Shown piece by piece: positions 44,567 to 64,000 of a DNA stretch of 64,000 nucleotides; position 1 is the stretch's first letter, and every line of letters begins with the position of its first letter. The stretch covers positions 348 through 64,347 of the forward strand of contig JAYUGL010000167.1 of assembly GCA_043738385.1 (NCBI GenBank), given 5' to 3'. The translations under genes were made by a program, and so were the position numbers. The notes under the pieces were generated by a model. The model saw nothing but the letters and a program-made list of their open reading frames with translations. It ran no database searches and was not told the origin of the DNA. The stretch comes from Sterolibacteriaceae bacterium. Its GTDB lineage: Bacteria; Pseudomonadota; Gammaproteobacteria; Burkholderiales; Rhodocyclaceae.

Positions 44567-44570
44567 CGCG

Positions 44571-46118: not shown

Positions 46119-46248
46119 TTTGCGCGTGCGCCATAAAAAGTTTCACTGCGAGATGCAAATCGTTCCTGACGCTGCTGATGCATAGAGGATTTGTTGGGGC
46201 TTCACCTCCGCCAAGTTGCTCAAGTTGACGCACACAACGCATGCCATT

Positions 46249-46278
46249 GGAAAACGCAGCGTCGAAAACGGACGCTGC
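46249..46278 (-). terminator. Terminator candidate in the convergent gap between TIR-B and TIR-C
   Basis: 8-bp stem GCAGCGTC/GACGCTGC (46256-63 / 46271-78) with a 7-nt loop, followed on the minus strand by GTTTTCC. Confidence 0.35.
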
Positions 46279-46384
46279 TCAAAAGGAAAAATCGACGTTG
46301 AAGGCTCGCGCATTGCGAGCGCGGGGACGAAGGCAGAAAAAGCAAACGTAAAGAAGACGGCCACGGCAAAAGCGCCGACAGTGC

Positions 46385-47191: not shown

Positions 47192-47347
47192 TGTTATCGC
47201 CTTTCGTTGAACACTGAATCGTCATGCCTGTCTTTGATGCTGTGTAGCACTACAGCCCGTGTCCTGTTGTCGATCATTCGGCCCAGCTTCTAGCCTGAGC
47301 CCATGCTACCTGCGGCATATTTCAATGTAAACCGCGGGTCGTCGCGC

Positions 47348-48517
47348 TCACACGAATCCGGCGAAATGGGCCGGCTGCACCTGCTTCGCGGCGGCTTGGC
47401 CGACCTTCTGGATCTCGGCTATGTATTGCACCGAATCCAGCATCTGGACGTGGTTCGGATCGACCTCCGCGAGACCCAAAGCGTCGAGGCCCGCGCGGCT
47501 CAGGTCCGCGTCATAACGCAGGTAGGTGAACAGCTTGGCGCCGGTCCAGTTGCTCTGGTCGCCGGGTTGTACCAAGAGGCCGCCGATCTCGCGATCAATC
47601 GGCCCGCCCGCGCGGCATGCGCCGAGCATCCGACACGCCGTGTCCCAGCCGGCAGCGGCGGCATTCATCAGCGCCGCCGGAATATTCTTGACGTGATCGA
47701 GCAGCCATAGATCATCGGCCTTCAGTTCCGGCCTGGCCATCGCCGCGCCGCCCGTGCCGACCGATACGATCAGCAGCTTGTCCGCGCCTGTGGGCCAATT
47801 CACCTTGTACGGCGCCGTAGTGGCCATCTGGAAGGCGAGAAAAGCTGGGTTGTTGTAGGTCGTCACACCGCCGTCTACAAATACGAACTGATACTCGTTT
47901 GGCGTACCTTCGGCGAAAGTCACCACTTCGGGCGGAAAGAACGTCGGTGCTGCCGTGCTGGCCCGCACCAGTTGCCATAGTGGCAGGTTGAGGTTGCAGT
48001 CTTTGCGATCAGCCTGGTTGTACTTGCCCAGCGGATTGTTGAACACCGGCCAGGGCGAATCAGTGGTGTGGTTGCGCAGCACCATCATCAGCAGGGTGCG
48101 CAGGTTCGCGTCGCCCAGCGTGGCGGGTGGCACGTTGTCAGCATGGCCAAGCGCGCGGTTGAGTTCAGTGCGCAGCTTTCCGGCCAACGGCTCATCGTTG
48201 TAGCTATAGCGCAGACGCTTGAAGAGGCTGGCCTTGTCGAACATCTGCTCGCCGCTACCAACGTAGAACGCGCGAATCCTGTCCATCGACATGCCGGCAG
48301 AGATGCAGGCGGCGATGATGGCGCCGGTGCTGGTGCCGCAAACGAAGTCGAAGTAATCGGCAAGCACCAGATCTGGCTTGCCGCACTGTTCGCGCAGTTG
48401 CGCTTCGATCCGCGCCAGGATTTCGACACTCATCAGGCCGCGGATGCCACCGCCATCGCAGGCGAGGATCTTCTTGGGGCCGGCGGACTGCATGCGCTTC
48501 AGGACCTGCTCGTTCAT
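47348..48517 (-). CDS. Patatin-like phospholipase
   Basis: DGGGIRG oxyanion loop, GTSTG nucleophile elbow and FVDGGV Asp motif. GGGAGA RBS. Confidence 0.9.
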   Translation of the reverse strand: MNEQVLKRMQSAGPKKILACDGGGIRGLMSVEILARIEAQLREQCGKPDLVLADYFDFVCGTSTGAIIAACISAGMSMDRIRAFYVGSGEQMFDKASLFKRLRYSYNDEPLAGKLRTELNRALGHADNVPPATLGDANLRTLLMMVLRNHTTDSPWPVFNNPLGKYNQADRKDCNLNLPLWQLVRASTAAPTFFPPEVVTFAEGTPNEYQFVFVDGGVTTYNNPAFLAFQMATTAPYKVNWPTGADKLLIVSVGTGGAAMARPELKADDLWLLDHVKNIPAALMNAAAAGWDTACRMLGACRAGGPIDREIGGLLVQPGDQSNWTGAKLFTYLRYDADLSRAGLDALGLAEVDPNHVQMLDSVQYIAEIQKVGQAAAKQVQPAHFAGFV

Positions 48518-48538
48518 GTCATTCTCCCAATACGTGTC

Positions 48539-50104
48539 TCAGGCGGACGGTCCGCCCGGCGCAACCGTGAACAACGCCTCGAACACTTCGCGTGCCTTGG
48601 CGGTATTCATGCGGCCAGCTTCCAGCCAAAGGAAACGTCCGCAGGGCGCGGCGCCAATATCGGCGGCGGCGGTCTGCCGGTCGGTTTTGTCATCGTAAAG
48701 CACAACGACACGACGCAGGTTCGCGACCTTGACCAAGACGCTCAGTTCGTAGCGGCAACCGTGGTTCTGCGATTGAAAGCCGCGCAGGTCCATGAGCACG
48801 ACGTCGCAGCGATTCACCAATGCGGTCAGCGCGGACTCCCAGGTCGTGTCGCGGCAGTAGCACTCGTTCACTCGATAGCGACCGTCCGGGTCGGGCTTGA
48901 GGTCGAAATTGGCCAGACGCTGCGGCACGTCGGGTTCGCTGTTGATGAAGCGTTTGCCCAGTTGCCCGTCGAGAAAAGTGAACAGGTCATCCGGATCGAG
49001 GGTACGGCTGACAAGGTCGGTGCCAGCGATCAGCATGGTGTTGCCGGTGAAGCGCCAGCGCTCGATCACCTGATCGAACAAGGCCTCCAGCTGCGCGTCA
49101 TGCTGAAAGACCCGCAGCACCAGCAAAGTGGCCGGGTTGTCTTCCCGCGGCCGCCAGATCGTCAGCACCCACCAGCCGACGGGGATCCAGAGCCACGGGA
49201 TCAACAAGCTCAGGCCGCTGGTGCCGACACCGGCAAATGCGGGAACGGCATTGCCCATGAGGATGACAAACCAATAGATGGCGAAGAGATAACCGAGATC
49301 GGAGAAACGCTTGTTGCGGTAAGCGCCGGCCATGCGACGACCTAGCGCGAACACCGGCCATGCAAGCAGCGCCCAGGGTGCCAGGGCGCAGAACAGCATC
49401 GTGCCCTTGACGCCGAAGACGTCGACCAATGGCGCCACAACCTGCCAGCTCGTGTTCACGTTGGTGCTGAGGGCCTGGAGCGCGAGGATCGAGGCACTGG
49501 AAAGAACCAGCGCCGGCGGCAACAGATAAGGCGCCACGGCCCGAATGCGACCACTGGCACTGATGATCAGTGTAATGATGAGTGGCACGCCCATCTCGGT
49601 GGACAACCAGCCGACGACCGCTAGCAGCGATTGCTGGGCATTGGAACGCAGCATCACGAGCACGATCATGATCACGAGATATATTGCGATGCCACCCAGC
49701 ACCCGGCCCCAGGGCCAGCGCAGGGTCAAGCCCCAGGCCAGCACCATCGGCCAGCCATAGACCGCGCCGAGCAGCAGTAGCCGATTGACCGAGAACGCCT
49801 TGACCTGAACGATCAAGGCAAACCACGCTTGCGTCAGCGCCACCAACACGCAAACCCCGGTCAGCGCCACCAGAAGGCGCATGGTCACGCGGCGATTTGC
49901 CGCGAGGTCCAACCGCGCTGGCATCCGCGGCGGCAAGGCCAACACCTCGGTAACGCCCGCACGCGCGACATCAGGCGCGGCCCCGCCACGCATCAGGATC
50001 ACCATGCGCCGTCGGTACAACCCGGCCACCACCCACGCAAGGCTGGCGGCGAGGAATACACCCAACATCAGGGCGACGAATAGGTGGCCGCTTTGAATTC
50101 CCAT
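48539..50104 (-). CDS. Multi-pass membrane protein with a C-terminal soluble alpha/beta domain of unknown function
   Basis: About 10 hydrophobic helices over the first ~320 aa, then a ~190-aa domain (LLVLRVFQHD...CDVVLMDLRGF...VVVLYDD) with alternating strand/helix character. No motif recognised. Confidence 0.6.
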   Translation of the reverse strand: MGIQSGHLFVALMLGVFLAASLAWVVAGLYRRRMVILMRGGAAPDVARAGVTEVLALPPRMPARLDLAANRRVTMRLLVALTGVCVLVALTQAWFALIVQVKAFSVNRLLLLGAVYGWPMVLAWGLTLRWPWGRVLGGIAIYLVIMIVLVMLRSNAQQSLLAVVGWLSTEMGVPLIITLIISASGRIRAVAPYLLPPALVLSSASILALQALSTNVNTSWQVVAPLVDVFGVKGTMLFCALAPWALLAWPVFALGRRMAGAYRNKRFSDLGYLFAIYWFVILMGNAVPAFAGVGTSGLSLLIPWLWIPVGWWVLTIWRPREDNPATLLVLRVFQHDAQLEALFDQVIERWRFTGNTMLIAGTDLVSRTLDPDDLFTFLDGQLGKRFINSEPDVPQRLANFDLKPDPDGRYRVNECYCRDTTWESALTALVNRCDVVLMDLRGFQSQNHGCRYELSVLVKVANLRRVVVLYDDKTDRQTAAADIGAAPCGRFLWLEAGRMNTAKAREVFEALFTVAPGGPSA

Positions 50105-50146: not shown

Positions 50147-51088
50147 TCACGACGAACCGCCATCTCGCTTGGCGACGAACTCCACCGGCGTATGCACCGA
50201 ATACCCGCCGCTGATTTCCAGTGTGAAACGTATGCTTTCGGGCGTTACCTGACCGATGTAGTGATGCGTCACCTCCTTCGGTTCCCCGCCGCTGCTGATC
50301 GACTCCAGGCTGCGTGTCACGAAGCTCAGCCACTCGCCCTCCAGCTTTGCCTGTTCTATCGTCAGACGGCCCCCTTCGAATGAGGCCGTGCCGTGCAGCG
50401 CATTGGCCAGGTATTTGAACTCGAACACTTCGTCATACTGGTCGCCCCAGTCGTACTTCACCCGCGCGCTCCAGCGCCCGCTGAGATCCACTGCGGCTTG
50501 GTGCGCCACCGGGGTGCTTGTCGATGTTGCTGGAACAAAGCGCAATGCCGCAAACACACCGACCACGACAATCGCAACGGCCGCGACAATCAGGCGCGCT
50601 CGGCCGAAGCCAGGCTTTGCGTCGTGGGCTTCCGGCGACAACTCCCTCAATCTCGCCACCAGCCGCTCGACATCCGTCCGCCAGTCGGCATCGGACAACA
50701 CCATGGCCTGGTGGCGCGCCAGGCTGGCGATGGCATCGGGCAGATCCTCGCCAGCCGGCATTGCCGCGCCGCCCAACAGCAAGGGGATGACCGGCTTGCC
50801 GGACGCGAGCCCGGCAGCCACCTCGCGGCGAACAAAATCGTCCGGCGCATCGAGTCGTCGCCCGCCGTCGGCGCCGGCCTCCAGCCAGTGGGGTCCGATC
50901 ATCACCAGCATCGCGTGGGCGGACTGCAATTGTCTGTTGATGGCCTCGACGAAGTCCTCGCCGGGCTGAATGTCGTCCACATCGCGGAACACGCTGCCGA
51001 CCCCGAAGGCCGTCTCAAGCGCATCCGCCAGGCGGCCGGCGAAACCGGCGTTGTCGTCGCGACGATAGGAAAGAAAGAATCTGGGCAT
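50147..51088 (-). CDS. TIR domain, single TM, ~120-aa extracytoplasmic beta-rich domain (TIR-D)
   Basis: Internal ATG 51088 (MPRFFLSYRRDD). GRLADAL, DFVRREVAAGL, VIPLLL. TM LIVAAVAIVVVGVFAALRFV. The upstream part of the listed ORF overlaps the previous gene. Confidence 0.8.
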   Translation of the reverse strand: MPRFFLSYRRDDNAGFAGRLADALETAFGVGSVFRDVDDIQPGEDFVEAINRQLQSAHAMLVMIGPHWLEAGADGGRRLDAPDDFVRREVAAGLASGKPVIPLLLGGAAMPAGEDLPDAIASLARHQAMVLSDADWRTDVERLVARLRELSPEAHDAKPGFGRARLIVAAVAIVVVGVFAALRFVPATSTSTPVAHQAAVDLSGRWSARVKYDWGDQYDEVFEFKYLANALHGTASFEGGRLTIEQAKLEGEWLSFVTRSLESISSGGEPKEVTHHYIGQVTPESIRFTLEISGGYSVHTPVEFVAKRDGGSS

Positions 51089-51102
51089 GGAGAGAAACAG
51101 CG

Positions 51103-52464
51103 TTACCCGTTTTGCCCAAGATCCGCGGCGCCGAGGCAAGCGATTTCGGCCAACGACGACTGCACAGCCTTGATCTGGGTCGCGCTCGTTTCGAGCATCC
51201 AGGCGGGCACGTTCAACGCCCATGCTTCCGCCTGCCACTTGGCTGCCGCAGCGGTATCACCCAGCCCCACGGCCGCTTCGCGCAGCGTGGCGACAATCCA
51301 AAAGCGTTTCTCGGCATCGATATCCTTATCGAGCAGCGGTTGCGCGTACTGAATCACCAGGCGCCGGGTGCGTTTTGCCAGCACCGCGTCGGTCATGCCT
51401 TCGTCCCGGTCACCGGCCTTTAGCGCCTTCAAAGCCCGCATGTCCAGCAGATGGGCCAGATTGATGCCGTTGTAGTAGTCCTGCTTGAGATGGAAACCGC
51501 GCTCGCAGGCGGCGATGCTCTCATCGAGGTCCTGTTCCTGGTGGTTGAGATCCCACAGGCGCTTGTGGATGGCGCCCCACAAGCCCAGCGTTTCCGGATC
51601 GTTGGTGGTCGCCGGCGAGAGCTCGCGCAGGATGTCCTTGGCCGCCAGGAGCGCCGCGTCGGGCGTCGGCTGTTGAGACTTGTAGGTGGCGAGCGCGAGC
51701 TGCTGAATGACGAAGCTATCGTTGGGTCGTTGCTTGCGCACTTCCTCAAGCAACCGCTGGGCATTGGCGAAGTCCCCGGAACCGATCCTGCCCAGGGCAT
51801 CATCGAGGACCGACTTGGCGCTCGCGGCTTCCGGTTCCGGGCCTTCAGCGCAGGTGCCGGGGGACAGCTGCGGAGGCCGCATGCGCGCGACGATCGGGGT
51901 CAGGTGGTCTGCAACTGCTGGCCCGGTGCCTCCCGCCGCCACGGCGGCGGGAGGCACCGGGCGGGGCTTTTCCAGCTCCGGTGGAATCAGGTCGGGCAGG
52001 AAGGTATACACCGGGCTATCAATCTCCCCGCTCGCCAGGATGTCGGCGATGGCCTGCTTCAGGTCATCGCGGAAGCGCTTCGCCTCTTGCGCGCCGATGT
52101 CCTCGCCCAGATGCTTGTAGCGGCGAATGGCGATGTGGCCGACATCGAAGGGGTTCTTGAACTGTTCCTCGGCAACGATGATCGTGGCGCGATGTCGCAA
52201 ACCATAGCGGATGCCCAGCTCAAAGGCAGCGTTGACGTTGTAGGTGGATAGATCCGCGATGACCAGATCGGCCTGATACAACTGCCGGTACATCGGCGTA
52301 TCGATGGTGCCGGAGTGCGGAATCTCGTCGGCACGCAGGCATGCCAGACCCGCCGCTTCCACCGCCTCTTTGATGATGGCATAGGAAGCGTCAAGGTCGA
52401 GTACGCGCCCGTCGGTGAAATCGGTCTTCTTGCCAAAGCCCTGGACAACAAAACAAGTAGCCAT
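51103..52464 (-). CDS. TIR-like / nucleoside-deoxyribosyltransferase-like N-terminal domain + TPR-like helical domain (DUF4071-like)
   Basis: ATG 52464 with a GGAGG RBS 5 nt upstream. CFVVQGFGKKTDFTDGRVLDLDASY...DLVIADLS...ELGIRYG N-terminal fold, then a ~250-aa helical repeat region. Confidence 0.65.
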   Translation of the reverse strand: MATCFVVQGFGKKTDFTDGRVLDLDASYAIIKEAVEAAGLACLRADEIPHSGTIDTPMYRQLYQADLVIADLSTYNVNAAFELGIRYGLRHRATIIVAEEQFKNPFDVGHIAIRRYKHLGEDIGAQEAKRFRDDLKQAIADILASGEIDSPVYTFLPDLIPPELEKPRPVPPAAVAAGGTGPAVADHLTPIVARMRPPQLSPGTCAEGPEPEAASAKSVLDDALGRIGSGDFANAQRLLEEVRKQRPNDSFVIQQLALATYKSQQPTPDAALLAAKDILRELSPATTNDPETLGLWGAIHKRLWDLNHQEQDLDESIAACERGFHLKQDYYNGINLAHLLDMRALKALKAGDRDEGMTDAVLAKRTRRLVIQYAQPLLDKDIDAEKRFWIVATLREAAVGLGDTAAAAKWQAEAWALNVPAWMLETSATQIKAVQSSLAEIACLGAADLGQNG

Positions 52465-52490: not shown

Positions 52491-53060
52491 TCAGGCAACT
52501 GCCTGCTTCAGGCCGGTCTCGTAGATCCACTGCCCGCTGCGCGGATCGCGGATGTAGCTCAACTGCTGGCGCCGGTTGGCGCCCTGTCCGGGCGCTTTCA
52601 CCGAGATATGCACCCATCCCGAGTTGGGCCCCTGACGCGGATCGAAGCATTCACAGATGATCTGATCATAGTCGGCAAGGTTGTCGCGCGCCCACTTGGC
52701 CAGTTCCAGTGTGCTCTTGCCGGGGATCTCGACGTCGCAGGCGCAGCCCCGCGTGTGCTGGCTGGTGCTGATCCAGCCAGCCGGCTTTTGTTTCAACGCG
52801 CGCTCGGTCGCCTGGCTGCGGAAAACGCTGTTGGGCGCAAAACTGCCGAACTTGTCGCGCAACACCTGCAAAACATTTCGCGCCAGATACACCGCCGCTT
52901 GCAGTTCGGCGTCGCCGGGAAATCCATTGTCAATACCGAGCCGACTGGCGACTTCGGACTTGGTGAGTTCAAAGACGTGAAAATTCGGCGCGACGAGGTC
53001 TTGCAGGTCCAGCGCCCGGAGCGTGATCTTGTCGAGCGGCGTGGTGGATCGGTCGGTCAT
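52491..53060 (-). CDS. Peptidase M15 (D-Ala-D-Ala carboxypeptidase/endolysin-like) zinc hydrolase
   Basis: Internal ATG 53060 (MTDRSTTPL). Hx6D (HTRGCACD) and distal WVHISV His motifs of the M15 family. The listed ORF's Arg-rich N-terminal extension overlaps the upstream giant gene. Confidence 0.7.
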   Translation of the reverse strand: MTDRSTTPLDKITLRALDLQDLVAPNFHVFELTKSEVASRLGIDNGFPGDAELQAAVYLARNVLQVLRDKFGSFAPNSVFRSQATERALKQKPAGWISTSQHTRGCACDVEIPGKSTLELAKWARDNLADYDQIICECFDPRQGPNSGWVHISVKAPGQGANRRQQLSYIRDPRSGQWIYETGLKQAVA

Positions 53061-53085: not shown

Positions 53086-56000
53086 TCACAGTGCGGCGCG
53101 GACCGACTTGATGGCCTCGGCCGCTGGCAAAGATGCGATGCCGGCGAGTTCGGCCACGAAGTCCAGGTGTTCCAGCACCGACGCGTATTCGCGCGGGCTG
53201 GCGCCACGTTGTGCCGCGGCCCGGTAGCGCGCAACGATCCTGCCCACCGACTGCGTCGCCGCGTTGCCTGTCTGCAAGAGCAAGCGCGCCAGTTCGCAAT
53301 CGGCCTCGCCGACGGCATCCCAGAAGTTGGGGTTCGCCTCCTTACGCGCTGTGGCGATGGCAATCATGCGCTGGCATTGGTCGTCGACAATGCTCCGCCA
53401 ATGGTCACTGCGCGTGCGATCGAGGACGGCGACGAATACCGTGGCAATGGCCCAGTTGGAGAACGGGTAGGGATTCTCGTTGTTGCCCCGCTTGAAGGCC
53501 TGGTGGTAGTAGCTGGCCATATTGACCAGCGCCTCGAAACGCGGTGTCGCGTCGTCGCACACCCAGGCCAGGCGCTTGCAGGCGCCGCCGAGGAGATTGA
53601 GCCGCTCGACCGTCGGCGCGCGCTGGCAGATCACATCCAGTTCCCTGACGGCGTGCTCAATGTCCGCGACGAGACCGCGGCGATCCGCCGCCTTGCCGCG
53701 CTTGCTGGCGCGCAGAGCCTGCCAGCGCTGACCGCAGAGCCGCACCTGGAAGTTGGCGCACTGCTCCACCGCGCGCAGCGGACAATCACCGAGATCAGCA
53801 TGCAACGCCTTGTTCAGCCATTCCACACCCTTGGCATACTCGCCGGTTTCGCCCCAAGCGAAGCCGGCGGCGGCGGCGACGTCGGCACGCGCGGCCCACT
53901 CCCCGCGTTGCGCTTCCGGAGCGCCTGCCAGCAGTGCGTCGATCGTTGCCCGCATGCGCGCCACAGCCTCCACGTCCTCGCCTTTTTCCTTCATCTGCAT
54001 GCGAATCGATTCGCGATGGTTGTCGAGTTCGGCGACCAGCTCGGCCGGTGCCAGGAAGCTGGGCTGCGACGGCCGCGCGGAACCTTCGCCGCGGAGGCGG
54101 TAGCCATGGTCGCCGTAGCATTGATATGCGCCCCAGGTATTCACCTCGGGAAAGCTGGCCCAGACCGCGGCGCGCGCCGCTTTCACCGCTTCGCCAAAAG
54201 TCATGGGGCAGTCGGGGTCAAGCATATGCCGGTAGAAACTCTCGGCAAACGCGCCCGCCGCCCCGTCGTCAACCGCCCAGCCCGCCGCCACCACCGCCTT
54301 GACCCCCATATTGATGAACTGTACGCCCAGATTCGCCGCCAGCGCACTGTATTCGCCGTGTCCTTCGGCCTGCGTCTTGCCCAGGTGACAGCAGTTGATG
54401 AACACGAGCTCCGGCACCCAGCGCATCTGTTCGATATCGCCCGGCGTCAGGAAGGTGTTCTTGCCGATGACCATGCCCGACACGCGCCGCTCCGGTTTGG
54501 AACTGGCCGTGATGTCCTGAACGGACTGCGCTCCGTCATCGTGAGCAGCTCCGGTGTCGTCGTTCAGGACGAATTCGTGCTCGCCGTGGCCGGCCAGGTG
54601 CAGGATGCGCCAGGCATCCTTGTGCAGTCCGTCCATCAGATCTTCGGCGTTCTCATCGATGCAGTCCCTGACCCGGAAGCCGCGCCGGCTGAGCAGGGCG
54701 GACACTTTCTGCGCCTCGTCCCGTGCGCCGGGCAGTTCCGGAAACTCGCGCCAACCGCCGAGGTCGGGATTGCCTACGACGAACGCCGTGGCTTCGGTCG
54801 CGTGATGGGGGTTGAGCCGGAACTGGGGCGTCTTCAACTGGCGGATCAGGCCCGCGCTCACCGCCGGCGGACGTCCGCTCTGGCTCCAGCGATCCTCGAT
54901 CAATTCCCACGGATAGCGCGCGGAGACTTCGTCTACCAACAGGACCATGTCGGTCTGTTGGGGCGCAAGTTCCTTGAGCTGATTGGGCAGCAGCATCTCG
55001 AACAGCGTCTTGGCCACTTCCGAATTGCTGGCCGGCGAGCGTGAGGCCTGGCGAATGAAATCCTCGGCGAACCGCAATTGGCCCGTGGCATGGGTAATCT
55101 CGGCGCGGGCGCGGTCGGTCGCCGAGATGAAGCGCAAGCCGCCATCGCCTTTCTCTTCGATGATCTCCAGCCGGCCCCACCAACCCGGCGCATCGTCGTA
55201 GCGCAGGCGACGGCGACAGCCCTGACCTTCCTCGACCACCCCGGCGCTCCAGTTGACCGCAGTCGCCAGTTGACCGTCCGCCAGGAGTGCTTTGAGGGCC
55301 TTGGCGGCGGCAAGCGCGGCGTCCTCGAAAACGTCCACGAACTCGATCCTGTCAACCAGCACCTTGTCCGCCAGTTCAGCCTTCTCAAGTCGCTCGTTGG
55401 CGAGCACGGCACCGCGCAGGATGACTTCGACACAATCCCGCACGCTCGTGCCGCCCGGGCCGGAGCCGACCAACAGGCAGGAAACCGCCGCCGAACGCAC
55501 ACCGCCGCTAGGGCCGAAACGCGCATCGGGCCACCGGGCCACCTGTAGCGCGTAGTCGAGCAGCGCGGCGCACACCGTGGTCTGGAGCACCGTGGTGGAC
55601 AGGCTGCCGACTTGGCCGAGACCGATGACGATGGCACCGCCGGGCTTGCCGCTCGGCTGTTCGTTGAAAAAGACGGCATGCGTTCCGGGCTGGCCGGGGT
55701 AGAGCCCGAGCCCCAGACTCTTCGTCAAAACGCGGCCGAGCCGCCCGTCCAGCGCAGCTTCGGCATTGACGATGACGTCGCCCAGGTAGTGGCCGACCAG
55801 CACCGGGTATCTGGCGTAGGAGAGATCGCCATGCACGACGCTGACCTGGATCCTCGGTGTCGTCATCTGATCGGCGGCATCCTCGACCGGCGCGCCGGGG
55901 CCAAAGCCCATGCTGCGCATGTCGCGCTGGTCGGGAATGCTGTCGGTCGGCGGCAGCGTGGGCATAACGAATTTTTCGGCGCCGGTCGTTGCGGCGCGCG

Positions 56001-58590
56001 CGCCACCGGGCGGCGTGGCGGGCAGCAGCGATGTCTTGCCGGTCATCAGCAAATCAAGGTAGCCCGGCAGGACGCGCTTCTGGGTGCACAAGGCGTCGTG
56101 CGCGGTATCCTCCGCATACCAGACCGGCACGTCGGGCAGAAAGCCCGATTTCCAGCTCACCGTGCCATCGCCGCATGGGGTGGCGAGAAACTCCAGGCGC
56201 TTGCGTCCCGCCAGCAGTGGATCCTCGTAGTCGGCTACCTGGTAGTCGATCACGGTCGCATCCTGGCAGCCGGCGACGTAGATCATGAACTTGGGGTCGG
56301 CGGGTGCCGCTTTGAGCAGCGCCCAGGTATCGCGCGCCTGTTGCAGCACCGCCTCGTCCGTCACCGGCCAACGGGCACTCAATGCCTTCCTGAGATCCTG
56401 CCACAGCGCGCGCTGCGCGAAATCCCGACTGTCGTCATCGAAGGGCAGAAGTTCCACCAGCCCGGGAAACGCGCGTACCAGATCGATGATTTCATCGGTG
56501 TCGTGCGTCATGTCGAGCAGGCTGAGGTTCGCCTCGGTCGCGTTGTAACCTGTCAGCCAGCGCACCGCTTCGTAGGAGCCGCGGTTGGGTGTACCGAGCA
56601 TCAGGAAGCGGCTGTTCGGCAGCGCCTGGATGCGCCGCCACAGCGCCGCGCCGCGGCTGCCGTCGACGATCATGGCACGCGTCACCAGGCCGCCCATCGA
56701 GTGAGCGACGATGTGTACCGGCTGCTGAGTGCGCTCGATCTCCGGCAACCAGGTCTCCAATTTGTCGGCGAGTTTCGCCGCCGCATCGCGCACCGACAGC
56801 CGCCAGTCATAGGGGAATATCTCGACGCGATGGCTGCGCGCGAGGAATTCCAGTAGCGGGCCGTAGAAATCGTCGAGCAGATCGACCGGCTCGACGCCGG
56901 CTACGTCCATATGAATCTTCGCCAGCCCGCCCCGCAACAAGCTCCAGTAGTTCAACCAGACACCCTCGCCCTGAACGTTCAGAGCACTACCCATGGTCCC
57001 TGGCAGCACTACCGCCAGCGGCCGTGGTTCGGCGGCGGTGCGACTGCGACGCACGGCAGCGCGCCAGCGCGGCTCTGCCTGCGGCGCTTCCTGAATCGGC
57101 TGGAAACCGCCGTCGTCATCGTCGGCCCGGGTGAGGCCCGCCACCAGCCAGCGCACGCTCTTGTCGTTGGCGAAATAGCTGAAGTGACTAACGTTGGCGC
57201 CCTTGTCTAACTGGAAGCGCGCACCCTTCTCCGGACGACGCAAGCCACCGGCCATGGAGCCGGTGTTCACCACCAGGTCGTGATCGGCGCCATAGAACCA
57301 GTCGGTGGCCAGCAGCTTGACCTGGCTCCACAAGCCCTCGCCCTCGATGTCGCCGGCGATGACGCTCAAGTCGGCGCTTGTCACCAGCGCCGGATGCAGC
57401 AGCAGGCGCGTCAACGCGGAACCCGGCATCATGGCTTCAAGCCCTGGCAGCGTGCGCGGATCGGTGCGTTCCTTTACCACCGCCAGCATGAAGTCGGCAA
57501 CATCGCCGACGAGACCGTCGCCACTCAGGAAATTCAGCACCGACAGCCAACGGTCGAGCCGCCCAGAAGCCAGCGTGGTGCCGCGCGCCGGACAGGCCAC
57601 GCGTACGAAACGACCAACCTTCAACTGGCGGTCGTCAAGTTCGTTCAATAGTTGTTGCAGGTTCTTGCGGTCGGCTTGGTAGCCCAAATCGCGCGCCTTG
57701 GCATCATTCGCCGCCAGCGGTCCGAGGTCCAGTTGCCGGGCGATGGTCCGGTCGGCGGCGAAGAGCGTCTGTAGCAGTTCCGGACGTAGCAGGTCGTTCG
57801 CGCGATCGCGCTGGCCGAGGCAAAGCAGCTCGCCGACCAGGCCGCCGCGCGAATGACTGACGAGATGAATCTCGGCGCCCTTCGGCAGCCGCTGCACCAG
57901 ATCCAGCGCGTTGCGGATCGGGCTTTCCGTCATGCTGCGATGCTCCCACGCAAAGACCCGATCGCCATATTTCTCGGCCAGCGTGCGGCGTGCGGCAGCG
58001 CCGACGGCACCGTTCCACAGCTTGCCGAAGCTGCCCTCGCAACTCGACGCGGTGCCATGCAGGAAGACCAGGACCGGCTTGTCCGTGGCGATGCGCGCGT
58101 TTTTTTCGGTCGGCGAAAGCGCAAAAGTATCGCCGAGTGCGCAACGGTAGAGTCCCGGTGCCCTGCCTTTGAGCATTTTTTCTTCAAACGCCCGGCCGAT
58201 GGCGCCGGCCGCCTTTTCTTTCAGATCCACGCCGAAGAACTCGAGCGCCTTGATGCCCAATCCCATCCACCCGCGCTGGCCGCGGGCGCCTGCCCGGGCG
58301 CCGCGCGCCGACGGCTGGAGCTCGATTTCCCAGGCATCGCCGCCATCGCGGCGCACCTCCTTGCGGCCGCTTTCGCGGATCAGATCGTCGGCACGCGTCC
58401 ACAGCACGAAGCCGTTGTCGAGCTCGACCTTCACCACCTCGTCGCTGTGCGCCTCGATCTCCTCGGCGGTCGCGCCCCGCGCAGCGCCAGGCACCACGCG
58501 GCGGTGGCTGGTGATGACGACCGCCTTGCTGGTGGCCGGCGCGGTAGCCGATGACTGTTGGGTGCCACGGATGCGATAGCTGATGGTCAT
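53086..58590 (-). CDS. 1,834-aa multidomain protein: two lipase-type alpha/beta hydrolases + central alpha/beta insert + CHAT (caspase-like) protease + C-terminal helical repeats
   Basis: ATG with AGGAG RBS. SHSRG (Ser247) with DHDLVV/SHF. AHSMGG (Ser631) with GDGTV and AHD (LCAT/PGAP1-like). CHAT dyad HLAGHG (His1335) and FINCCHLG (Cys1400/1401). Residues ~1510-1834 are helical. Confidence 0.85.
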   Translation of the reverse strand: MTISYRIRGTQQSSATAPATSKAVVITSHRRVVPGAARGATAEEIEAHSDEVVKVELDNGFVLWTRADDLIRESGRKEVRRDGGDAWEIELQPSARGARAGARGQRGWMGLGIKALEFFGVDLKEKAAGAIGRAFEEKMLKGRAPGLYRCALGDTFALSPTEKNARIATDKPVLVFLHGTASSCEGSFGKLWNGAVGAAARRTLAEKYGDRVFAWEHRSMTESPIRNALDLVQRLPKGAEIHLVSHSRGGLVGELLCLGQRDRANDLLRPELLQTLFAADRTIARQLDLGPLAANDAKARDLGYQADRKNLQQLLNELDDRQLKVGRFVRVACPARGTTLASGRLDRWLSVLNFLSGDGLVGDVADFMLAVVKERTDPRTLPGLEAMMPGSALTRLLLHPALVTSADLSVIAGDIEGEGLWSQVKLLATDWFYGADHDLVVNTGSMAGGLRRPEKGARFQLDKGANVSHFSYFANDKSVRWLVAGLTRADDDDGGFQPIQEAPQAEPRWRAAVRRSRTAAEPRPLAVVLPGTMGSALNVQGEGVWLNYWSLLRGGLAKIHMDVAGVEPVDLLDDFYGPLLEFLARSHRVEIFPYDWRLSVRDAAAKLADKLETWLPEIERTQQPVHIVAHSMGGLVTRAMIVDGSRGAALWRRIQALPNSRFLMLGTPNRGSYEAVRWLTGYNATEANLSLLDMTHDTDEIIDLVRAFPGLVELLPFDDDSRDFAQRALWQDLRKALSARWPVTDEAVLQQARDTWALLKAAPADPKFMIYVAGCQDATVIDYQVADYEDPLLAGRKRLEFLATPCGDGTVSWKSGFLPDVPVWYAEDTAHDALCTQKRVLPGYLDLLMTGKTSLLPATPPGGARAATTGAEKFVMPTLPPTDSIPDQRDMRSMGFGPGAPVEDAADQMTTPRIQVSVVHGDLSYARYPVLVGHYLGDVIVNAEAALDGRLGRVLTKSLGLGLYPGQPGTHAVFFNEQPSGKPGGAIVIGLGQVGSLSTTVLQTTVCAALLDYALQVARWPDARFGPSGGVRSAAVSCLLVGSGPGGTSVRDCVEVILRGAVLANERLEKAELADKVLVDRIEFVDVFEDAALAAAKALKALLADGQLATAVNWSAGVVEEGQGCRRRLRYDDAPGWWGRLEIIEEKGDGGLRFISATDRARAEITHATGQLRFAEDFIRQASRSPASNSEVAKTLFEMLLPNQLKELAPQQTDMVLLVDEVSARYPWELIEDRWSQSGRPPAVSAGLIRQLKTPQFRLNPHHATEATAFVVGNPDLGGWREFPELPGARDEAQKVSALLSRRGFRVRDCIDENAEDLMDGLHKDAWRILHLAGHGEHEFVLNDDTGAAHDDGAQSVQDITASSKPERRVSGMVIGKNTFLTPGDIEQMRWVPELVFINCCHLGKTQAEGHGEYSALAANLGVQFINMGVKAVVAAGWAVDDGAAGAFAESFYRHMLDPDCPMTFGEAVKAARAAVWASFPEVNTWGAYQCYGDHGYRLRGEGSARPSQPSFLAPAELVAELDNHRESIRMQMKEKGEDVEAVARMRATIDALLAGAPEAQRGEWAARADVAAAAGFAWGETGEYAKGVEWLNKALHADLGDCPLRAVEQCANFQVRLCGQRWQALRASKRGKAADRRGLVADIEHAVRELDVICQRAPTVERLNLLGGACKRLAWVCDDATPRFEALVNMASYYHQAFKRGNNENPYPFSNWAIATVFVAVLDRTRSDHWRSIVDDQCQRMIAIATARKEANPNFWDAVGEADCELARLLLQTGNAATQSVGRIVARYRAAAQRGASPREYASVLEHLDFVAELAGIASLPAAEAIKSVRAAL

Positions 58591-58637: not shown

Positions 58638-59429
58638 TCAGGTGAACACGTCGAATCGGCGGGCGGCCGCGCTGCCGAATATCTGCGGGTGCTGCGGCAG
58701 TTTGCTGGAAGGCAGGTAGGCACTGATCAGTTTGAACCAGTCGTCATAATTGGACGGCGCGTCCTCGCGCAGCGTCTTCAGCGCGTAGTAGGTGAAGGCG
58801 CCGTTAGGCCGGCCATGGAAGCGCGTATCCCAGCTGTATTCGGAATCCTCGGCGCCAGCCAAAAGCAGATCGCCGCCGCTGCGCTTGAATCCGTGCACCA
58901 GGGTCTTTGGCCGCTTCGCGGTTGCAGGCAGCTTGCCCGCCGGCATCCAGTCCTGCAAGGGCATGTAGCGGGCGCGCGGCATGCCGGGGGCGGGGTCGGT
59001 TGCATCGCCGCGGGTTACCGAACCGGAGTGGCAGCTGTCGGAGAGCAGCAGGACGCGCACGCCATTCGCGCGCCGGTCGAAAAGTTGATGGATCTCGTCA
59101 TCGAGCAGTGGCCCCGCGCTGCTGATATCCCAGGGGCAGAGACCCTCATCACGGCCATCGGGCTCATCGCCGGAACTGTCCGGCACCCAGGTGCCATGCC
59201 CGGAGTAGGTGATGACCACGGTATCGCCTGACGACACGCCGGAGATCGCCGCGCCGATTAACGCCGCCATGTTAGCCTTGGTGGCCTGGCCGTCGAGCAA
59301 CTTGGTAATGGTGAAGCCGCGCTTGGCGAGTTCCGTCGCCCAGTCATTGGCATCGTTGACGCAGCCGGACAAATCGTTCTGGGTGCCGGGATAGTCGTTG
59401 ATGCCTATGCAAAGTGCCTTCTTCGCCAT
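58638..59429 (-). CDS. Caspase-like peptidase (C14 family, metacaspase/orthocaspase type)
   Basis: ALCIGINDY, His motif YSGHG (His78, nt 59196-59198) and Cys motif LSDSCHSG (Cys133, nt 59031-59033). AAGGAGGA RBS. Confidence 0.9.
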   Translation of the reverse strand: MAKKALCIGINDYPGTQNDLSGCVNDANDWATELAKRGFTITKLLDGQATKANMAALIGAAISGVSSGDTVVITYSGHGTWVPDSSGDEPDGRDEGLCPWDISSAGPLLDDEIHQLFDRRANGVRVLLLSDSCHSGSVTRGDATDPAPGMPRARYMPLQDWMPAGKLPATAKRPKTLVHGFKRSGGDLLLAGAEDSEYSWDTRFHGRPNGAFTYYALKTLREDAPSNYDDWFKLISAYLPSSKLPQHPQIFGSAAARRFDVFT

Positions 59430-59567: not shown

Positions 59568-60389
59568 TCAGAGGCTTCTGGTGTCGATCCAGCAGACCCG
59601 GCCGCTGCGGCGTTTGACTTCTTCGACCATATGGCCGGTGCCACCGGCGCCCTCGGTACCCGCGCCGTTCCAAAGGCAGACGAGACTTACCTTGTCCGGG
59701 CCGCAGACGAGGGCGGTATAGAGCAGCCAGAGATTGCAACGCTCGTAGGGGTAGTCCTCGCTGCTGCCGCGCGGCGGCTGGCCCAGCACCTCCGGTGCGG
59801 CGCGCGGGGGTGCCGCCAGCGCGGCTCTCGACGCCAGGTAACGGCGGTGCCAATCTTCGCCGCAGCCAACCACGGAGGCCGCGATGAACTCCGGTTCGGC
59901 AAAGGGTTGCAGCCAGAACACCTTCACGCCACGTTGCCGACAGGCTTCGGTGAACAGCAGGTCGCCGCCGCATGCGCCCTGCGTCAGCGCGAGATCTTGC
60001 GACCCGGCAGCGAGCCGTTCGAGCGCTTCGGCAATTCTTTGCGCCGCCTGCGCTACCTTGTTGGCGGGAAAACGTGGCGTCGGCCGATCGGGGGCATCGA
60101 TCATATGGCCACTGAACACGAAGACCTGCCTGGGCTGCCAGGTTTCTGCGGCGCGATTCGGAACAGCGGTCCCTTGCCGGCACAGGGCCTGCTCGCTCAG
60201 GCCCTTCGCATTGCCAGCGTTGATAACCAAGGCACGTTCGAGCAGTTCGAGCGCGAACGCGTAGTGCCCCGCCGCACGTAACGCCGCGGCCGCCTCGATC
60301 CAAGTATCGGCGCGAAGCTCCGCTGCCGGCGCCTCGTCGGCGAGCAGCAGCAGATCACCGATGCGGTTCGCCGAGCGGGCGAGACCCAC
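59568..60389 (-). CDS. Hypothetical protein with SLOG/LOG-like Rossmannoid domain (tentative) and short N-terminal helical region
   Basis: This frame is the only protein-like one of three overlapping ORFs. VFVFSGHMID strand, TQGACGGDLLFTEA and GAGGTGHMVEE resemble the GGxxG / GGxGTxxE loops of LOG/DprA/SLOG folds. GTG start. Confidence 0.5.
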   Translation of the reverse strand: MGLARSANRIGDLLLLADEAPAAELRADTWIEAAAALRAAGHYAFALELLERALVINAGNAKGLSEQALCRQGTAVPNRAAETWQPRQVFVFSGHMIDAPDRPTPRFPANKVAQAAQRIAEALERLAAGSQDLALTQGACGGDLLFTEACRQRGVKVFWLQPFAEPEFIAASVVGCGEDWHRRYLASRAALAAPPRAAPEVLGQPPRGSSEDYPYERCNLWLLYTALVCGPDKVSLVCLWNGAGTEGAGGTGHMVEEVKRRSGRVCWIDTRSL

Positions 60390-60437: not shown

Positions 60438-61832
60438 TCAACTCCAGGCGCGATTGCCAAGCCCGGCGACGTAGTCGTTGATGAACTTCGCCCAGGCGTT
60501 CTTCTTCGCGAAGTCGAGCGTGCGGTAGAGGCCGCAGACCTTCTTCTTCGGGAAGTAGATCGAGGCGCCGTGCGAATGCGCCATCTTCGCGCCTTTCCAG
60601 CCCGATCGCAGGATCATCTGCGCCGCCGCCGCCTTCACCGCCGCACAGGCGGCCGAAACATCGGCAACGGTGACGAGCTTGGCCAGGCCGTCGCAAAGGT
60701 CAACCAGGTCGACGTAATCGTCGTAGGGTGACGAGTACTCCTGCACCCCGCCGCGTACCGACTGGAGCGCGGTGAAGACCTTCGCGTCGGTCATCGCCTT
60801 GCTGAGCGCGGCGCCGAGGCTATTCACGCCGGCGGCAACGGCATCGATCTTGGCAAGATCCGTGGCGGCGAAGGTGACGCCGGAATTAGCGCCATAAGAC
60901 GCGATGTACTGGGTAACGGCGAGCTTCGAAAGTTCGGCCGGAGACATGGCCGGATTCTTGGCCAGCGCGGTCAGGATGCGGTCGTAAGGCCAGCCTTCGT
61001 TTGGCTCTTCTTCCTGCGAACCCACGGTGTAGGCAGCGACGCCCTTAACCTGGTAGCCGACTTCGAGCATGCTCATCAGGCAGGCGTCGAAACCGAGGAT
61101 GTCGATCTTGCGGCCGAGCAGTTTCTTGATGTCGAGCATGACGCGCTTCATCTCGATGTTGTCGATGTAGTCCTGCGCCTGATCGTCGAAGGCGATGGCG
61201 CGCGACTGCGCCATTTTCTGAACCGTGGTCCGGAACAGCGCGCGACCGCCGCGTCGAATCGCCGCCCGTGCCTGCGCCAGAGGAACCGCGGCCGTCTTCT
61301 TGCGCCCGGCGCCCGCGCGCGCCGACACGCCGCCCTTGGCATCGAGCGTGTAGCCCTTGCGGATCACCGGCGGCGCGTTGCCACCGAAATAGTCGCCGCC
61401 GGCGGCATAAAGGTTCGAATCGTCCCAACCGGCGCCGTGGTTCCAGAGTACCGCCAGGTAATGCTGCGCCGGGTAGGTCTTGATGCCCCAGGTCAGAAAG
61501 TCCTTCAGGACCTTGGGGTCGCCCGTATTCGTCTCGCCCAGATCACCGACGACGTCGGCCGCGACCGGGGTACCCTTGCGCAGCAGATAGCGTTTCGTGG
61601 TTTCCTTGCTGCCCGCCCGATCAAACTGGGCAACGACGTTGATCGAGGCGCTGGAGCCGACCTTCTTCATCTCCAGCAGATCGGTCACTCCGGCGCCGTC
61701 GAGATTGTTGTCGCCGGCCAGATAGACCATGAGGGTCCAGCTGGCATTCGCTTTGGCTTTGGCCGGAGCCGCTTTTTTCGTCGTCGCTCTTCCTGCCGGC
61801 GTCTTTGTTGTCGTTGCGCGTGCCATAGTCAT
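60438..61832 (-). CDS. Clostripain-like cysteine peptidase (C11 family)
   Basis: WTLMVYLAGDNNL, His motif LWNHGAGW, Cys motif GFDACLMSMLE. N-terminal Lys/Ala/Thr-rich low-complexity segment. Confidence 0.85.
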   Translation of the reverse strand: MTMARATTTKTPAGRATTKKAAPAKAKANASWTLMVYLAGDNNLDGAGVTDLLEMKKVGSSASINVVAQFDRAGSKETTKRYLLRKGTPVAADVVGDLGETNTGDPKVLKDFLTWGIKTYPAQHYLAVLWNHGAGWDDSNLYAAGGDYFGGNAPPVIRKGYTLDAKGGVSARAGAGRKKTAAVPLAQARAAIRRGGRALFRTTVQKMAQSRAIAFDDQAQDYIDNIEMKRVMLDIKKLLGRKIDILGFDACLMSMLEVGYQVKGVAAYTVGSQEEEPNEGWPYDRILTALAKNPAMSPAELSKLAVTQYIASYGANSGVTFAATDLAKIDAVAAGVNSLGAALSKAMTDAKVFTALQSVRGGVQEYSSPYDDYVDLVDLCDGLAKLVTVADVSAACAAVKAAAAQMILRSGWKGAKMAHSHGASIYFPKKKVCGLYRTLDFAKKNAWAKFINDYVAGLGNRAWS

Positions 61833-62633: not shown

Positions 62634-64000
62634 TCAGTAGCCAAGGTCATCGATTGGCACAGTCAGGGTGGCGCCCGGCGCATTGCCGAGAATCCGGTTA
62701 ATCGTGCGTTCGATGACCTCCTTGTTGTTGTCAAACGAGCCATGCGATGCGGGGATGGATTTTTTGCCGGTCGAGACCTGGTCACTGGTGACGACTTCGC
62801 ACGCAGGTCGCCCGTCGGCCTGCGCCGGCAGACCACTCACCCAGTTGCGCCAATCGCTCACCTGCGGCCAGTAGCTCTGCTGCCAGAGGTCGTCATCGGG
62901 ATGGGTGGCGTTGATCTCGACGCAATGCTGCAGGCCGGCAATCGGCGTCTTGCGTGCATCTTCGAAACCGCGACACACCAGGTAGAGCAGCGATTTGCCA
63001 TACGGCCCGGCGCTATCTTCTTTTTCGCGTTGGTCGGAGAGCACGTGCAGCCAGGTTTTACTGGCGGGCACTGACTTGGGTGTCACAAAGTGAAGGTTTG
63101 CGAAAGCGAGCGAGCAAGCGGGCGCAAACAAGGTGAGCGAGGCAGGTTTGATTTTTGCCTTCGCCATCATGTCGAGCAAATAACCATGGACAAACGAACC
63201 CGCCGAGTGGCCGACCAAATGAAATTCGGTGTCAGGATACTTCGCCTGCAACCACGCCATGTTTGCGACCATGAGATCCAGCGCGCAACCCTGGGCCTGC
63301 GCCCCTGCCGCGTTGTCTTTCATTTCATTCCAGATCCACCGGGCCGCGTGCGCGCTCGCTTCCAGCAGGTAGTCTTTCGCGTCGCCGAAGAATCCGGTGG
63401 CAATTTTTTCCGCCGGTGCTATGCCAAGTACATCCTGTAGTTTGGAAATGATGGTTTCCCAAGCGCCGGTGCGCCAGGTATAGAAAAGCGGGTAGACGCC
63501 GTTGGCAAGAAAATAGGGGGCCATCACCCGGATACGATTGATGGAGGATTCTTCGTCGTTAAGTCCACCGTGCGCATAGATCACGACCTTGCGCGCAGGT
63601 TTGGCGACCCCCTTGAGCCACTGGCCGATATTCTCTTTCATGATCAACTCAACCAGTCCTTCAGCGGTGCCAATATTGGGCATGCTCATGCGCACGAGTC
63701 CATTATTGCCGGCGACCAAAGTATGCTGGTACGCACGCTGTGTGGGCCACGGCGGTACACCAGCGGTACTCCCTTTGTCGCCGGCCTTGCTGTCACCGGA
63801 CAACAAGGAGGTACTGAGTTGCCGCGCCGGTGCGCTGGTGATGACCGCGGCGCCGGTAGGCTGGGTCGCCTGTGGTACGCCGAGCGAACACACCCAGGCA
63901 TCGGCGCCATTCACTGCCCAATCGGCGTAGGTCATGATCGCGAATCCGCTTGCACCCCATCCCTTGCCCCACGAGTTCTGCACCACGAAGCCGATTTCGT
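62634..64000 (-). CDS. Papain-like (C1) peptidase C-terminal end fused to an alpha/beta hydrolase (lipase/esterase-like); 5' end outside window
   Basis: The frame is open to base 64000 (..GFVVQNSWGKGWGASGF, the NSW catalytic-Asn region of C1 peptidases). Downstream: VVIYAHGGLND and nucleophile elbow VGHSAGSF. Confidence 0.75.
   Translation of the reverse strand, partial: EIGFVVQNSWGKGWGASGFAIMTYADWAVNGADAWVCSLGVPQATQPTGAAVITSAPARQLSTSLLSGDSKAGDKGSTAGVPPWPTQRAYQHTLVAGNNGLVRMSMPNIGTAEGLVELIMKENIGQWLKGVAKPARKVVIYAHGGLNDEESSINRIRVMAPYFLANGVYPLFYTWRTGAWETIISKLQDVLGIAPAEKIATGFFGDAKDYLLEASAHAARWIWNEMKDNAAGAQAQGCALDLMVANMAWLQAKYPDTEFHLVGHSAGSFVHGYLLDMMAKAKIKPASLTLFAPACSLAFANLHFVTPKSVPASKTWLHVLSDQREKEDSAGPYGKSLLYLVCRGFEDARKTPIAGLQHCVEINATHPDDDLWQQSYWPQVSDWRNWVSGLPAQADGRPACEVVTSDQVSTGKKSIPASHGSFDNNKEVIERTINRILGNAPGATLTVPIDDLGY

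Follow-up and report, generated by a model that had tools for sequence, protein, structure and literature searches.

A 64,000-nucleotide stretch of DNA from a Sterolibacteriaceae bacterium (contig JAYUGL010000167.1; referred to here as the window) carries on its minus strand, at 53086..58590, a gene for a giant protein of 1,834 amino acids (aa) in which two different lipase-type hydrolases share one chain with a macro-fold domain, a CHAT caspase-like protease and a helical TPR-S domain. The giant is most likely a cytoplasmic, single-chain, anti-phage effector of the abortive-infection type. We cautiously favor a conflict system in which a signal- or trigger-gated CHAT protease licenses the fused lipase effectors. 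The C-terminal two-fifths of the protein (macro-fold domain, CHAT and TPR-S) would form the regulatory core, and the N-terminal half would hold the hydrolases as cargo behind a β-rich domain.

The reading frame is uninterrupted, as the initial annotation had it. It runs for 1,834 codons on the minus strand from ATG to TGA (stop codon 53086-53088), with a GAGGAG Shine-Dalgarno sequence 8 nt 5' of the start codon. Five independently assembled contigs (ENA and Logan) code for exactly this protein, the longest being ENA ERZ27314315 k141_1727389 with 85.6 kb, and a sequencing artefact is therefore ruled out. Protein clusters that share 54-95% identity with the giant number more than 120; they span 97-100% of its length and contain the same four Pfam domains. 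These full-length relatives, together with the identical contigs, exclude a frameshift, sequencing-error or gene-fusion origin, and hence the concern that sequencing errors had obscured a split into separate genes. Promoter and terminator scans gave results no better than shuffled sequence.

To assign domains, we judged Pfam matches against gathering scores, modeled residues 1-900 and 880-1834 separately with AlphaFold2 on an alignment of 61 sequences (mean predicted local distance difference test scores, pLDDT, of 79.4 and 82.6, respectively), and compared the models with solved structures using Foldseek. Conservation was scored in 121 full-length sequences of 54-95% identity. The initial annotation had recognized four parts; we count six, as an N-terminal beta domain (1-~93) and the macro-fold domain (~913-1110) had been overlooked. 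We regard the resulting composition as close to certain:

53086..58590, minus strand: whole gene, 1,834 aa plus stop, with full-length homologues
58312..58590, minus strand: N-terminal beta-rich domain, aa 1-93, family unknown (AlphaFold2 strands at 4-89, pLDDT 64-75)
58267..58311, minus strand: disordered, indel-rich loop, aa 94-108, ending in R106-G107 (pLDDT <50)
57121..58266, minus strand: hydrolase 1, aa 109-490, a DUF7379 alpha/beta hydrolase (PF24096, 3.5e-32)
56011..57024, minus strand: hydrolase 2, aa 523-860, with an LCAT/LPLA2/Tle4-like phospholipase fold (Pfam LCAT 5.4e-9, PGAP1, Foldseek)
55855..56010, minus strand: linker, aa 861-912, containing R865 (pLDDT <50 at 863-870 and 879-883)
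55087..55854, minus strand: macro-fold domain, aa ~913-1110, plus a small beta region to ~1168 (Foldseek, weak sequence matches)
54100..55086, minus strand: CHAT caspase-like protease, aa ~1169-1497 (Pfam CHAT 4.8e-24, C14 1.2e-4)
53089..54048, minus strand: TPR-S helical domain, aa 1515-1834 (PF20308, 1.4e-11; all-helical, TPR fold matches)

All four main Pfam families score above their gathering cut-offs, and the Foldseek matches agree, so that profile searches uphold rather than reject the two lipase-type hydrolases and the CHAT protease originally proposed. Hydrolase 1 belongs to DUF7379 (PF24096), with 112.3 bits against a cut-off of 33 over three stretches, the best at 174-257. For hydrolase 2, the LCAT profile (PF02450) gives 36.2 bits against a cut-off of 21 at aa 589-744, PGAP1 matches at 619-643, and DUF676 and other lipase-type families also match the nucleophile elbow. 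The solved structures closest to the N-terminal half are LPLA2 (4x92, 1.3e-10), LCAT (5txf) and Tle4 (4r1d), and Pseudomonas and Burkholderia lipases are likewise among its fold matches. A sequence search of the PDB with the whole giant and a 31-sequence profile yielded only marginal alpha/beta-hydrolase matches (1pja, 4r1d, 5ah0). Hydrolase 2 is thus of the LCAT/LPLA2 type by profile, by fold and by a nucleophile elbow with a Ser-Asp-His triad.

The catalytic motifs are intact, and the serine, histidine and cysteine residues named initially, with their codons, are correct: S247 (57850-57852), S631 (56698-56700), H1335 (54586-54588) and C1400 (54391-54393). S247, D438, H469, D808, H831, H1335, C1400 and C1401 are invariant in 121/121 sequences, and S631 is conserved in 120/121. 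In hydrolase 2, the predicted triad consists of S631 (AHSMGG), D808 (GDGTV) and H831, each following a predicted beta strand. In hydrolase 1, S247 lies in T/S-H-S-R-G and H469 is the histidine partner, with either D414 or D438 as the acid. D438 is the candidate originally put forward, and is invariant. In the model, however, D414 stands at the end of strand 408-414 and D438 in a loop (429-445) of pLDDT <50, and D414 may for this reason be the acid instead. The most conserved stretch in the 121 sequences also lies in this hydrolase, at aa 330-450 (nt ~57241-57603; 79-86% mean identity). It overlaps low-confidence AlphaFold2 segments (339-346, 358-362, 417-419 and 429-445), and may be a lid, membrane-binding or regulatory element.

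The CHAT profile (PF12770) matches aa 1191-1494 through positions 2-289 of its 289, scoring 85.7 bits (cut-off 24), and Peptidase_C14 matches within this region (aa 1269-1410, 1.2e-4). H1335-G1336 of HLAGHG, which aligns with the metacaspase SGHG motif, and C1400/C1401 of NCCHLG are both invariant. Foldseek returned TPR-CHAT (8d9h_E, 7y8t_B, 7y85_D) and SAVED-CHAT (8tl0_D) with probabilities of 0.99-1.00; TM-scores were low because the matched chains are multi-domain. By profile, motifs and fold, then, this is a CHAT protease of clan CD, and peptidase activity is predicted. C1400 had been taken as the catalytic cysteine. It is invariant, as noted above, but the adjacent C1401 (54388-54390) is more likely the nucleophile by motif analogy, since NCCHLG lines up with DSCHSG of metacaspases.

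What had been described as about 320 aa of helical repeats is indeed all-helical (1515-1834, pLDDT 86-98 over most of the region), and is specifically TPR-S: PF20308 matches aa 1585-1715 with 45.3 bits against a cut-off of 27.6. TPR-S, a domain defined by Burroughs & Aravind (2020), is a predicted sensor of NAD-derived signals and also occurs in ThsI, the effector of type VIII Thoeris. Binding of such a ligand is correspondingly a prediction for the giant, and is no more than presumed even for ThsI. At the other end of the protein, the N-terminal beta domain drew only a non-significant ProQ_C match (E=0.11) from Pfam at E<=10.

The macro fold was identified by structure. Foldseek matched the C-terminal half to macroH2A1.1 (1zr3, TM-score normalized to target 0.71), PARP14, MACROD2 and TTHA0132, and single-domain macro targets aligned over ~190 columns with target-normalized TM-scores of 0.63-0.76. 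The N-terminal domains of leucine aminopeptidase (LAP; 8pz0, 1gyt), which have a macro-like fold, were also matched. We place the domain at ~913-1110 because a profile of the mid region aligns weakly with the LAP N-domain 3jru_B, because the equivalent region of the homologue P0204 matches Pfam Peptidase_M17_N (4.5e-4), and because two invariant Gly-rich loops, GLGQVG (990-995) and GxGxGG (1042-1047), fall here. Neither the giant nor its homologues match Pfam Macro, and the mid domain stays empty even at E<=10. By sequence, the domain thus shows no Macro profile or ADP-ribose-binding motif, only a weak affinity to Peptidase_M17_N.

The family is modular. A search of 1.84 billion proteins with a macro-fold profile gave 1,609 representatives of 50%-identity clusters, 775 of them at E<=1e-30. 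The majority are giants, 1,750-2,010 aa in length, whose macro-fold domain lies at position ~870-1000. There is also an LCAT-only variant (P0175, 1,308 aa, verified as a complete gene), two complete DUF7379-only genes (P0188 and P0204), and core proteins with no hydrolase at all, namely P0130 (977 aa, inside its contig) and P0186 (adjoining a KAP-NTPase-LRR gene). Four further LCAT-only candidates (P0122, P0155, P0128 and P0221) were set aside as probably truncated calls, their starts lying inside conserved hydrolase sequence. Since complete genes exist with two, one and zero hydrolases, the constant unit is macro-fold domain plus CHAT plus TPR-S, and the hydrolases are exchangeable cargo. Such a core-plus-cargo pattern is typical of a regulator-effector arrangement. 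A C14 metacaspase accompanies the one-hydrolase variant P0188 as well. At a locus with a DUF7379-only member (L087:10335-12535), the order is changed: the C14 caspase lies downstream instead, and after it comes a calcineurin-like Metallophos phosphoesterase, possibly a signal-degrading enzyme.

If the CHAT protease licenses the hydrolases, it could do so by cleavage, and three conserved arginines are candidates. R81, within the N-terminal beta domain, is invariant in the 121 sequences. R106 (121/121) and G107 (120/121) are preceded by gapped, variable columns and lie in the segment 94-108 of pLDDT <50. R865 (121/121) falls in a disordered stretch of the linker that joins hydrolase 2 to the macro-fold domain. 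Together the sites bracket the two-hydrolase block, with R81 and R106 flanking a variable piece of 25 residues, and these two persist as (S/T)-R-G/D across different 50%-identity clusters, DUF7379-only variants included. On this pattern we tentatively nominate R81, R106-G107 and R865 as Arg-specific cleavage sites. The CHAT domain acting in cis would be the likelier processing enzyme, since the arginines are universal and a separate metacaspase is encoded in only about half of the loci.

There is a precedent for such processing. LcCaspase activates the alpha/beta-hydrolase zymogen LcHydrolase, two conserved R|G cuts excising a short middle piece (Evans et al., PMC12642450). As there, the giant couples a cysteine protease of clan CD with an alpha/beta hydrolase that would be a latent death effector, and R81 and R106-G107 of the giant, 25 residues apart, lie between a ~9 kDa N-terminal piece and hydrolase 1. 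The pair may therefore echo the double R|G cleavage, and would fit the strict preference for Arg of bacterial caspase-like effectors. The giant differs in being one polypeptide with two different hydrolases and other sensors; the comparison is by description.

To assess how the family is distributed, we scanned one genome per species for a pattern of the giant and found at least 587 loci with relatives. We kept 80, whose matches are 43-78% identical and nearly all about full length. The hosts are mostly Beta- and Gammaproteobacteria, among them Thauera, Denitromonas, Niveibacterium, Accumulibacter, Competibacter, Dechloromonas, Rhodoferax, Rubrivivax, Azotobacter, Lamprocystis and Thiodiazotropha; some lie outside these classes (Geobacter, Syntrophobacteraceae, Methylomirabilis). 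Among the matches listed, the closest named relative is from a Rhodocyclaceae metagenome-assembled genome (MAG), at 78% identity. Public annotation of the family is generic ('CHAT domain-containing' or 'DUF7379 domain-containing' protein), and literature searches on DUF7379 or TPR-S plus CHAT retrieved no paper describing it. The initial annotation had named no described system with this architecture; it is undescribed in the literature we found, but it is not rare, being that of a large conserved family.

Comparison of the 80 loci by tblastn and by clustering of open reading frames revealed recurrent partners. A C14 metacaspase is the commonest upstream neighbor, directly preceding the giant in 36 of 81 loci. 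An M15 peptidase is present in 40/80 and is the next gene downstream in 30-40, the count varying with the method. For a tally of partners, we considered only the 63 loci with >=3 kb on both flanks:

M15 peptidase: 32
C14 metacaspase: 30
another TPR-S protein: 26 (41%)
8-transmembrane (8-TM) protein: 14
TIR: 12 (19%)
patatin: 6
C11: 5
none of these partners: 5

Either a TIR or a further TPR-S protein occurs in 34/63 loci. The additional TPR-S proteins bear other effector-like domains (e.g. a TPR-S-patatin fusion), and a DUF4062(NIR)-ATPase and a TIR-NB-ARC-TPR protein are also found beside family members. Beyond the partners, the flanks hold housekeeping genes (argS, gltX, purB, malic enzyme, flhA, SDR, ABC1 kinase) that differ by lineage, so the unit behaves as a small inserted island. 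The neighborhood bears on the earlier suggestion of a self-contained executioner in a conflict system. TIR, TPR-S, caspase and patatin neighbors fit a conflict role, within which an executioner function can be inferred, but the giant comes with partners rather than being self-contained: C14 lies upstream and M15 downstream in about half of the loci, and 41% encode another TPR-S protein.

Housekeeping flanks in many genomes might instead point to regulated autolysis with lipid remodeling, whether housekeeping or developmental, as in programmed lysis within the flocs and biofilms of aggregate-forming Proteobacteria. The hosts are largely floc, biofilm or aggregate taxa (Thauera, Accumulibacter, Competibacter, Dechloromonas, Lamprocystis), and papers from the Aravind group describe an enrichment of caspase-type systems in 'multicellular' prokaryotes. 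Yet the flanking genes vary by locus, so the giant is not tied to one place on the chromosome, and its relatives are spread over several classes and phyla. The co-occurrence with TIR, patatin and other TPR-S genes argues further against this reading, as does the fact that the patatin and TIR of the window match PADLOC defence models. We consider it improbable.

A more serious alternative is that the giant senses its trigger directly. TPR-S, perhaps with the macro-fold domain, would bind a phage protein or damaged cell component in the manner of Avs/STAND proteins, with no messenger involved; the CHAT and lipase steps would be the same. Most loci lack a nearby TIR and some have no partner at all, core-only genes lie amid unrelated genes, and TPR scaffolds often bind proteins. 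In addition, the TPR-S match of the giant (1.4e-11) is weaker than that of a ThsI-like protein encoded nearby in the window (1.7e-24), and BLASTP found no pairwise similarity between the giant's TPR-S region and that protein. On the other hand, the helical domain matches TPR-S specifically and above its gathering score, and the further TPR-S proteins with other effector domains in 41% of loci, along with TIR in 19%, suggest a shared diffusible signal. Direct sensing strikes us as rather unlikely overall, though worth keeping in view.

Least probable, and in our estimate very improbable, is that the giant is an anti-competitor toxin, a Tle-like phospholipase exported by a secretion system, with CHAT as a maturation protease and the helices binding a chaperone or adaptor. 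Hydrolase 2 does have a fold like that of the type VI secretion effector Tle4, with weak sequence similarity as well, and M15 peptidases are also known as peptidoglycan-targeting toxins. However, no signal peptide or transmembrane segment was found in the giant, and among the annotated neighbors in the window and the recurrent flank clusters there is no secretion-system gene, no vgrG, hcp or PAAR gene and no immunity-like gene of the kind that adjoins those of Tle effectors. The partners (TIR, TPR-S, metacaspase) are instead those of intracellular conflict.

Returning to the protease-gated lipase effector, we envisage the following course. A trigger would be sensed by TPR-S and/or the macro-fold domain, the best candidate being a nucleotide-derived messenger made by TIR/NADase-type proteins; that the trigger is a nucleotide is possible but doubtful. 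Sensing would turn CHAT on, probably by oligomerization as in SAVED-CHAT, and CHAT would cut after R81, R106|G107 and R865, freeing or unlocking the two hydrolases. It would probably also process the neighboring metacaspase zymogen where one is present. The lipases would then break down membrane phospholipid while the metacaspase degrades proteins, and loss of the membrane would let the cytoplasmic M15 enzyme reach peptidoglycan, leading to lysis before the invader's cycle is complete.

Several observations weigh against this scheme. Only 19% of loci have a TIR within ~5-6 kb, and 5/63 lack every recurrent partner, so a dedicated signal generator within the locus is not a feature of the family. 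PADLOC (like NCBIfam) returned zero matches for the giant. The macro-fold domain has no Pfam Macro match and is nearest in sequence to the N-terminal domain of M17 aminopeptidases, which serves in oligomerization or DNA binding and is not an ADP-ribose binder. Part of hydrolase 1, D438 included, is modeled with low confidence, and the conserved arginines could be structural instead. The trigger is the weak point. Most loci are without a TIR or NADase gene, which leaves a signal supplied in trans or direct sensing of something by TPR-S and the macro-fold domain.

Among known systems, Thoeris-type and SAVED-CHAT-type proteases are the closest, rather than Craspase specifically, because the helices are TPR-S and a macro-fold domain precedes CHAT. 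Craspase was the precedent first cited. The TPR-CHAT fold matches agree with it to a degree, and its protease Csx29 (type III-E CRISPR) likewise combines TPR with CHAT. In Csx29, however, the TPR is N-terminal (the reverse order), activation is by gRAMP-RNA and the substrate is Csx30, and there are no Cas genes in the neighborhood of the giant. SAVED-CHAT is nucleotide-activated, and cleaves and activates PCaspase in type III-B CRISPR-CBASS hybrids (Steens et al., bioRxiv 10.1101/2023.06.23.546230). It resembles the giant in that a sensor is fused to CHAT and a small caspase-like protease is encoded adjacent, and by its fold match (8tl0_D). Unlike SAVED-CHAT, the giant has TPR-S and a macro-fold domain in place of SAVED, bears two fused lipases and lacks a CRISPR or CD-NTase context; cleavage of its metacaspase is here inferred.

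The Thoeris systems supply parallels to each element of the core. In type IV, TIR-made N7-cADPR activates an Arg-specific caspase-like effector; in type II, a Macro domain binds His-ADPR; and in type VIII, the Aravind-type TPR (TPR-S) of ThsI is the presumed cADPR sensor. The giant shares TPR-S, a macro-like fold and a caspase-like protease with these systems, and TIR genes may be enriched near the family. It is far larger and multi-enzymatic, however, and has no obligatory TIR partner (19% of loci). Nor does it form a Thoeris-effector operon: the nearest TIR in the window is paired with its own ThsI-like gene, and in 81% of loci the flanks compared are free of TIR genes. Hydrolase 2 shares its fold and Ser-Asp-His triad with LCAT, LPLA2 and Tle4, but those enzymes are secreted or lysosomal and stand alone, whereas hydrolase 2 is predicted to be cytoplasmic and is fused to a protease and sensor.

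In the window itself, the giant lies within a tightly packed, same-strand array of conflict-type genes. Upstream of it are, in array order, the 699-aa, C11, 273-aa TPR and C14 genes, and downstream M15, ThsI-like TPR-S, TIR, 8-TM, patatin and a second TIR, with a third TIR on the opposite strand:

62634-64000 (L001:2888-4984), minus strand: 699-aa protein, with a weak papain-like N-half (C1, E=0.004) and a weak alpha/beta-hydrolase C-half
60438-61832, minus strand: C11 clostripain-family protease
59568..60389, minus strand: 273-aa protein, a single TPR plus an unannotated C-terminal domain of ~190 aa (21/80 loci)
58638..59429, minus strand: metacaspase-like C14 protease, 263 aa, 47 nt upstream of the giant (Pfam C14 7e-24)
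52491..53060, minus strand: M15 (LAS-type) zinc peptidase, 189 aa, 25 nt downstream of the giant (Pfam Peptidase_M15_3)
51103-52464, minus strand: ThsI-like TPR-S protein, 453 aa (Pfam TPR-S 1.7e-24; MAP3K_TRAF_bd)
50147-51088, minus strand: TIR protein, 313 aa (TIR_2 1.2e-14)
44514-50104: further conflict-type genes downstream (8-TM, patatin, two TIR)

The C14 partner matches GSU0716 (3bij, 5e-32) and metacaspases in the PDB. The M15 gene has a GGGAGA Shine-Dalgarno sequence and encodes the LAS-type HxxxxxxD...H motif; no signal peptide, transmembrane or hydrophobic segment was found in its product. A cytoplasmic, endolysin-like M15 enzyme would need a membrane breach to reach peptidoglycan, or else would act on cytoplasmic D-Ala-D-Ala.

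The ThsI-like and TIR genes, 0.6-3 kb downstream of the giant (50147..52464), look like a type VIII Thoeris pair (ThsI + TIR). The N-domain of the ThsI-like protein is unannotated, with only a weak PADLOC 'Effector TIR' match and no sequence match in the PDB. BLASTP found no similarity between this protein and the 273-aa protein either. PADLOC recognizes the TIRs (as ThsB-like), the patatin and the caspase of the window. The patatin is CapV-like and matches a CBASS-type phospholipase effector (2e-44), the 8-TM protein (521 aa) has a soluble C-terminal part, and the other TIR proteins are of 268 aa (in the array) and 534 aa (plus strand). The 699-aa protein is possibly a further fusion of protease and hydrolase within this array.

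The ~190-aa domain of the 273-aa protein, with its GACGGD motif, is 63-70% identical to stand-alone proteins of ~196 aa from Nitrospira, Sulfurimicrobium and Methanoperedens MAGs, and there are further proteins, 380-470 aa long, in which it is fused C-terminally to TPR-S. The domain is thus associated with TPR-S, highly conserved and still unnamed. At ~44 kb, where the array of conflict genes starts, GC content rises from 0.57-0.60 to 0.62-0.66, and a fragment of an rve integrase lies on the source contig just past the high-coordinate end of the window (L001:2402-2839). Both features are consistent with a horizontally acquired island.

Every component of the giant is of a known kind, as is the logic of a sensor acting through a protease on a latent effector, and no new principle is involved. 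What sets it apart is the pair of different lipases on a protease-sensor core, the macro-fold domain, and the conserved entourage of metacaspase and M15 peptidase. In the characterized cases, sensor, protease and effector are split over two or three proteins; the giant joins them all on one chain. The most far-reaching version of the scheme is an all-in-one death machine, in which the macro-fold and TPR-S domains act as a double sensor of an ADP-ribose-type messenger from any TIR/NADase in trans, CHAT frees two phospholipases by self-cleavage at the invariant arginines and activates the metacaspase, and M15 gains access to the wall through the breached membrane. We think it unlikely that all of this holds. 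If it did, the giant would represent a holin-free, host-encoded lysis cascade, a shared executioner for several signaling defence systems.

Protease-gated death effectors and TIR/NADase signaling are central themes in bacterial immunity, and the giant family offers a compact model for CHAT switching and hydrolase licensing. It would test TPR-S and macro-fold domains as general receptors of NAD-derived signals. If the proposed course is true, hydrolysis of membrane lipid and peptidoglycan would join the known outputs of caspase-like immunity.

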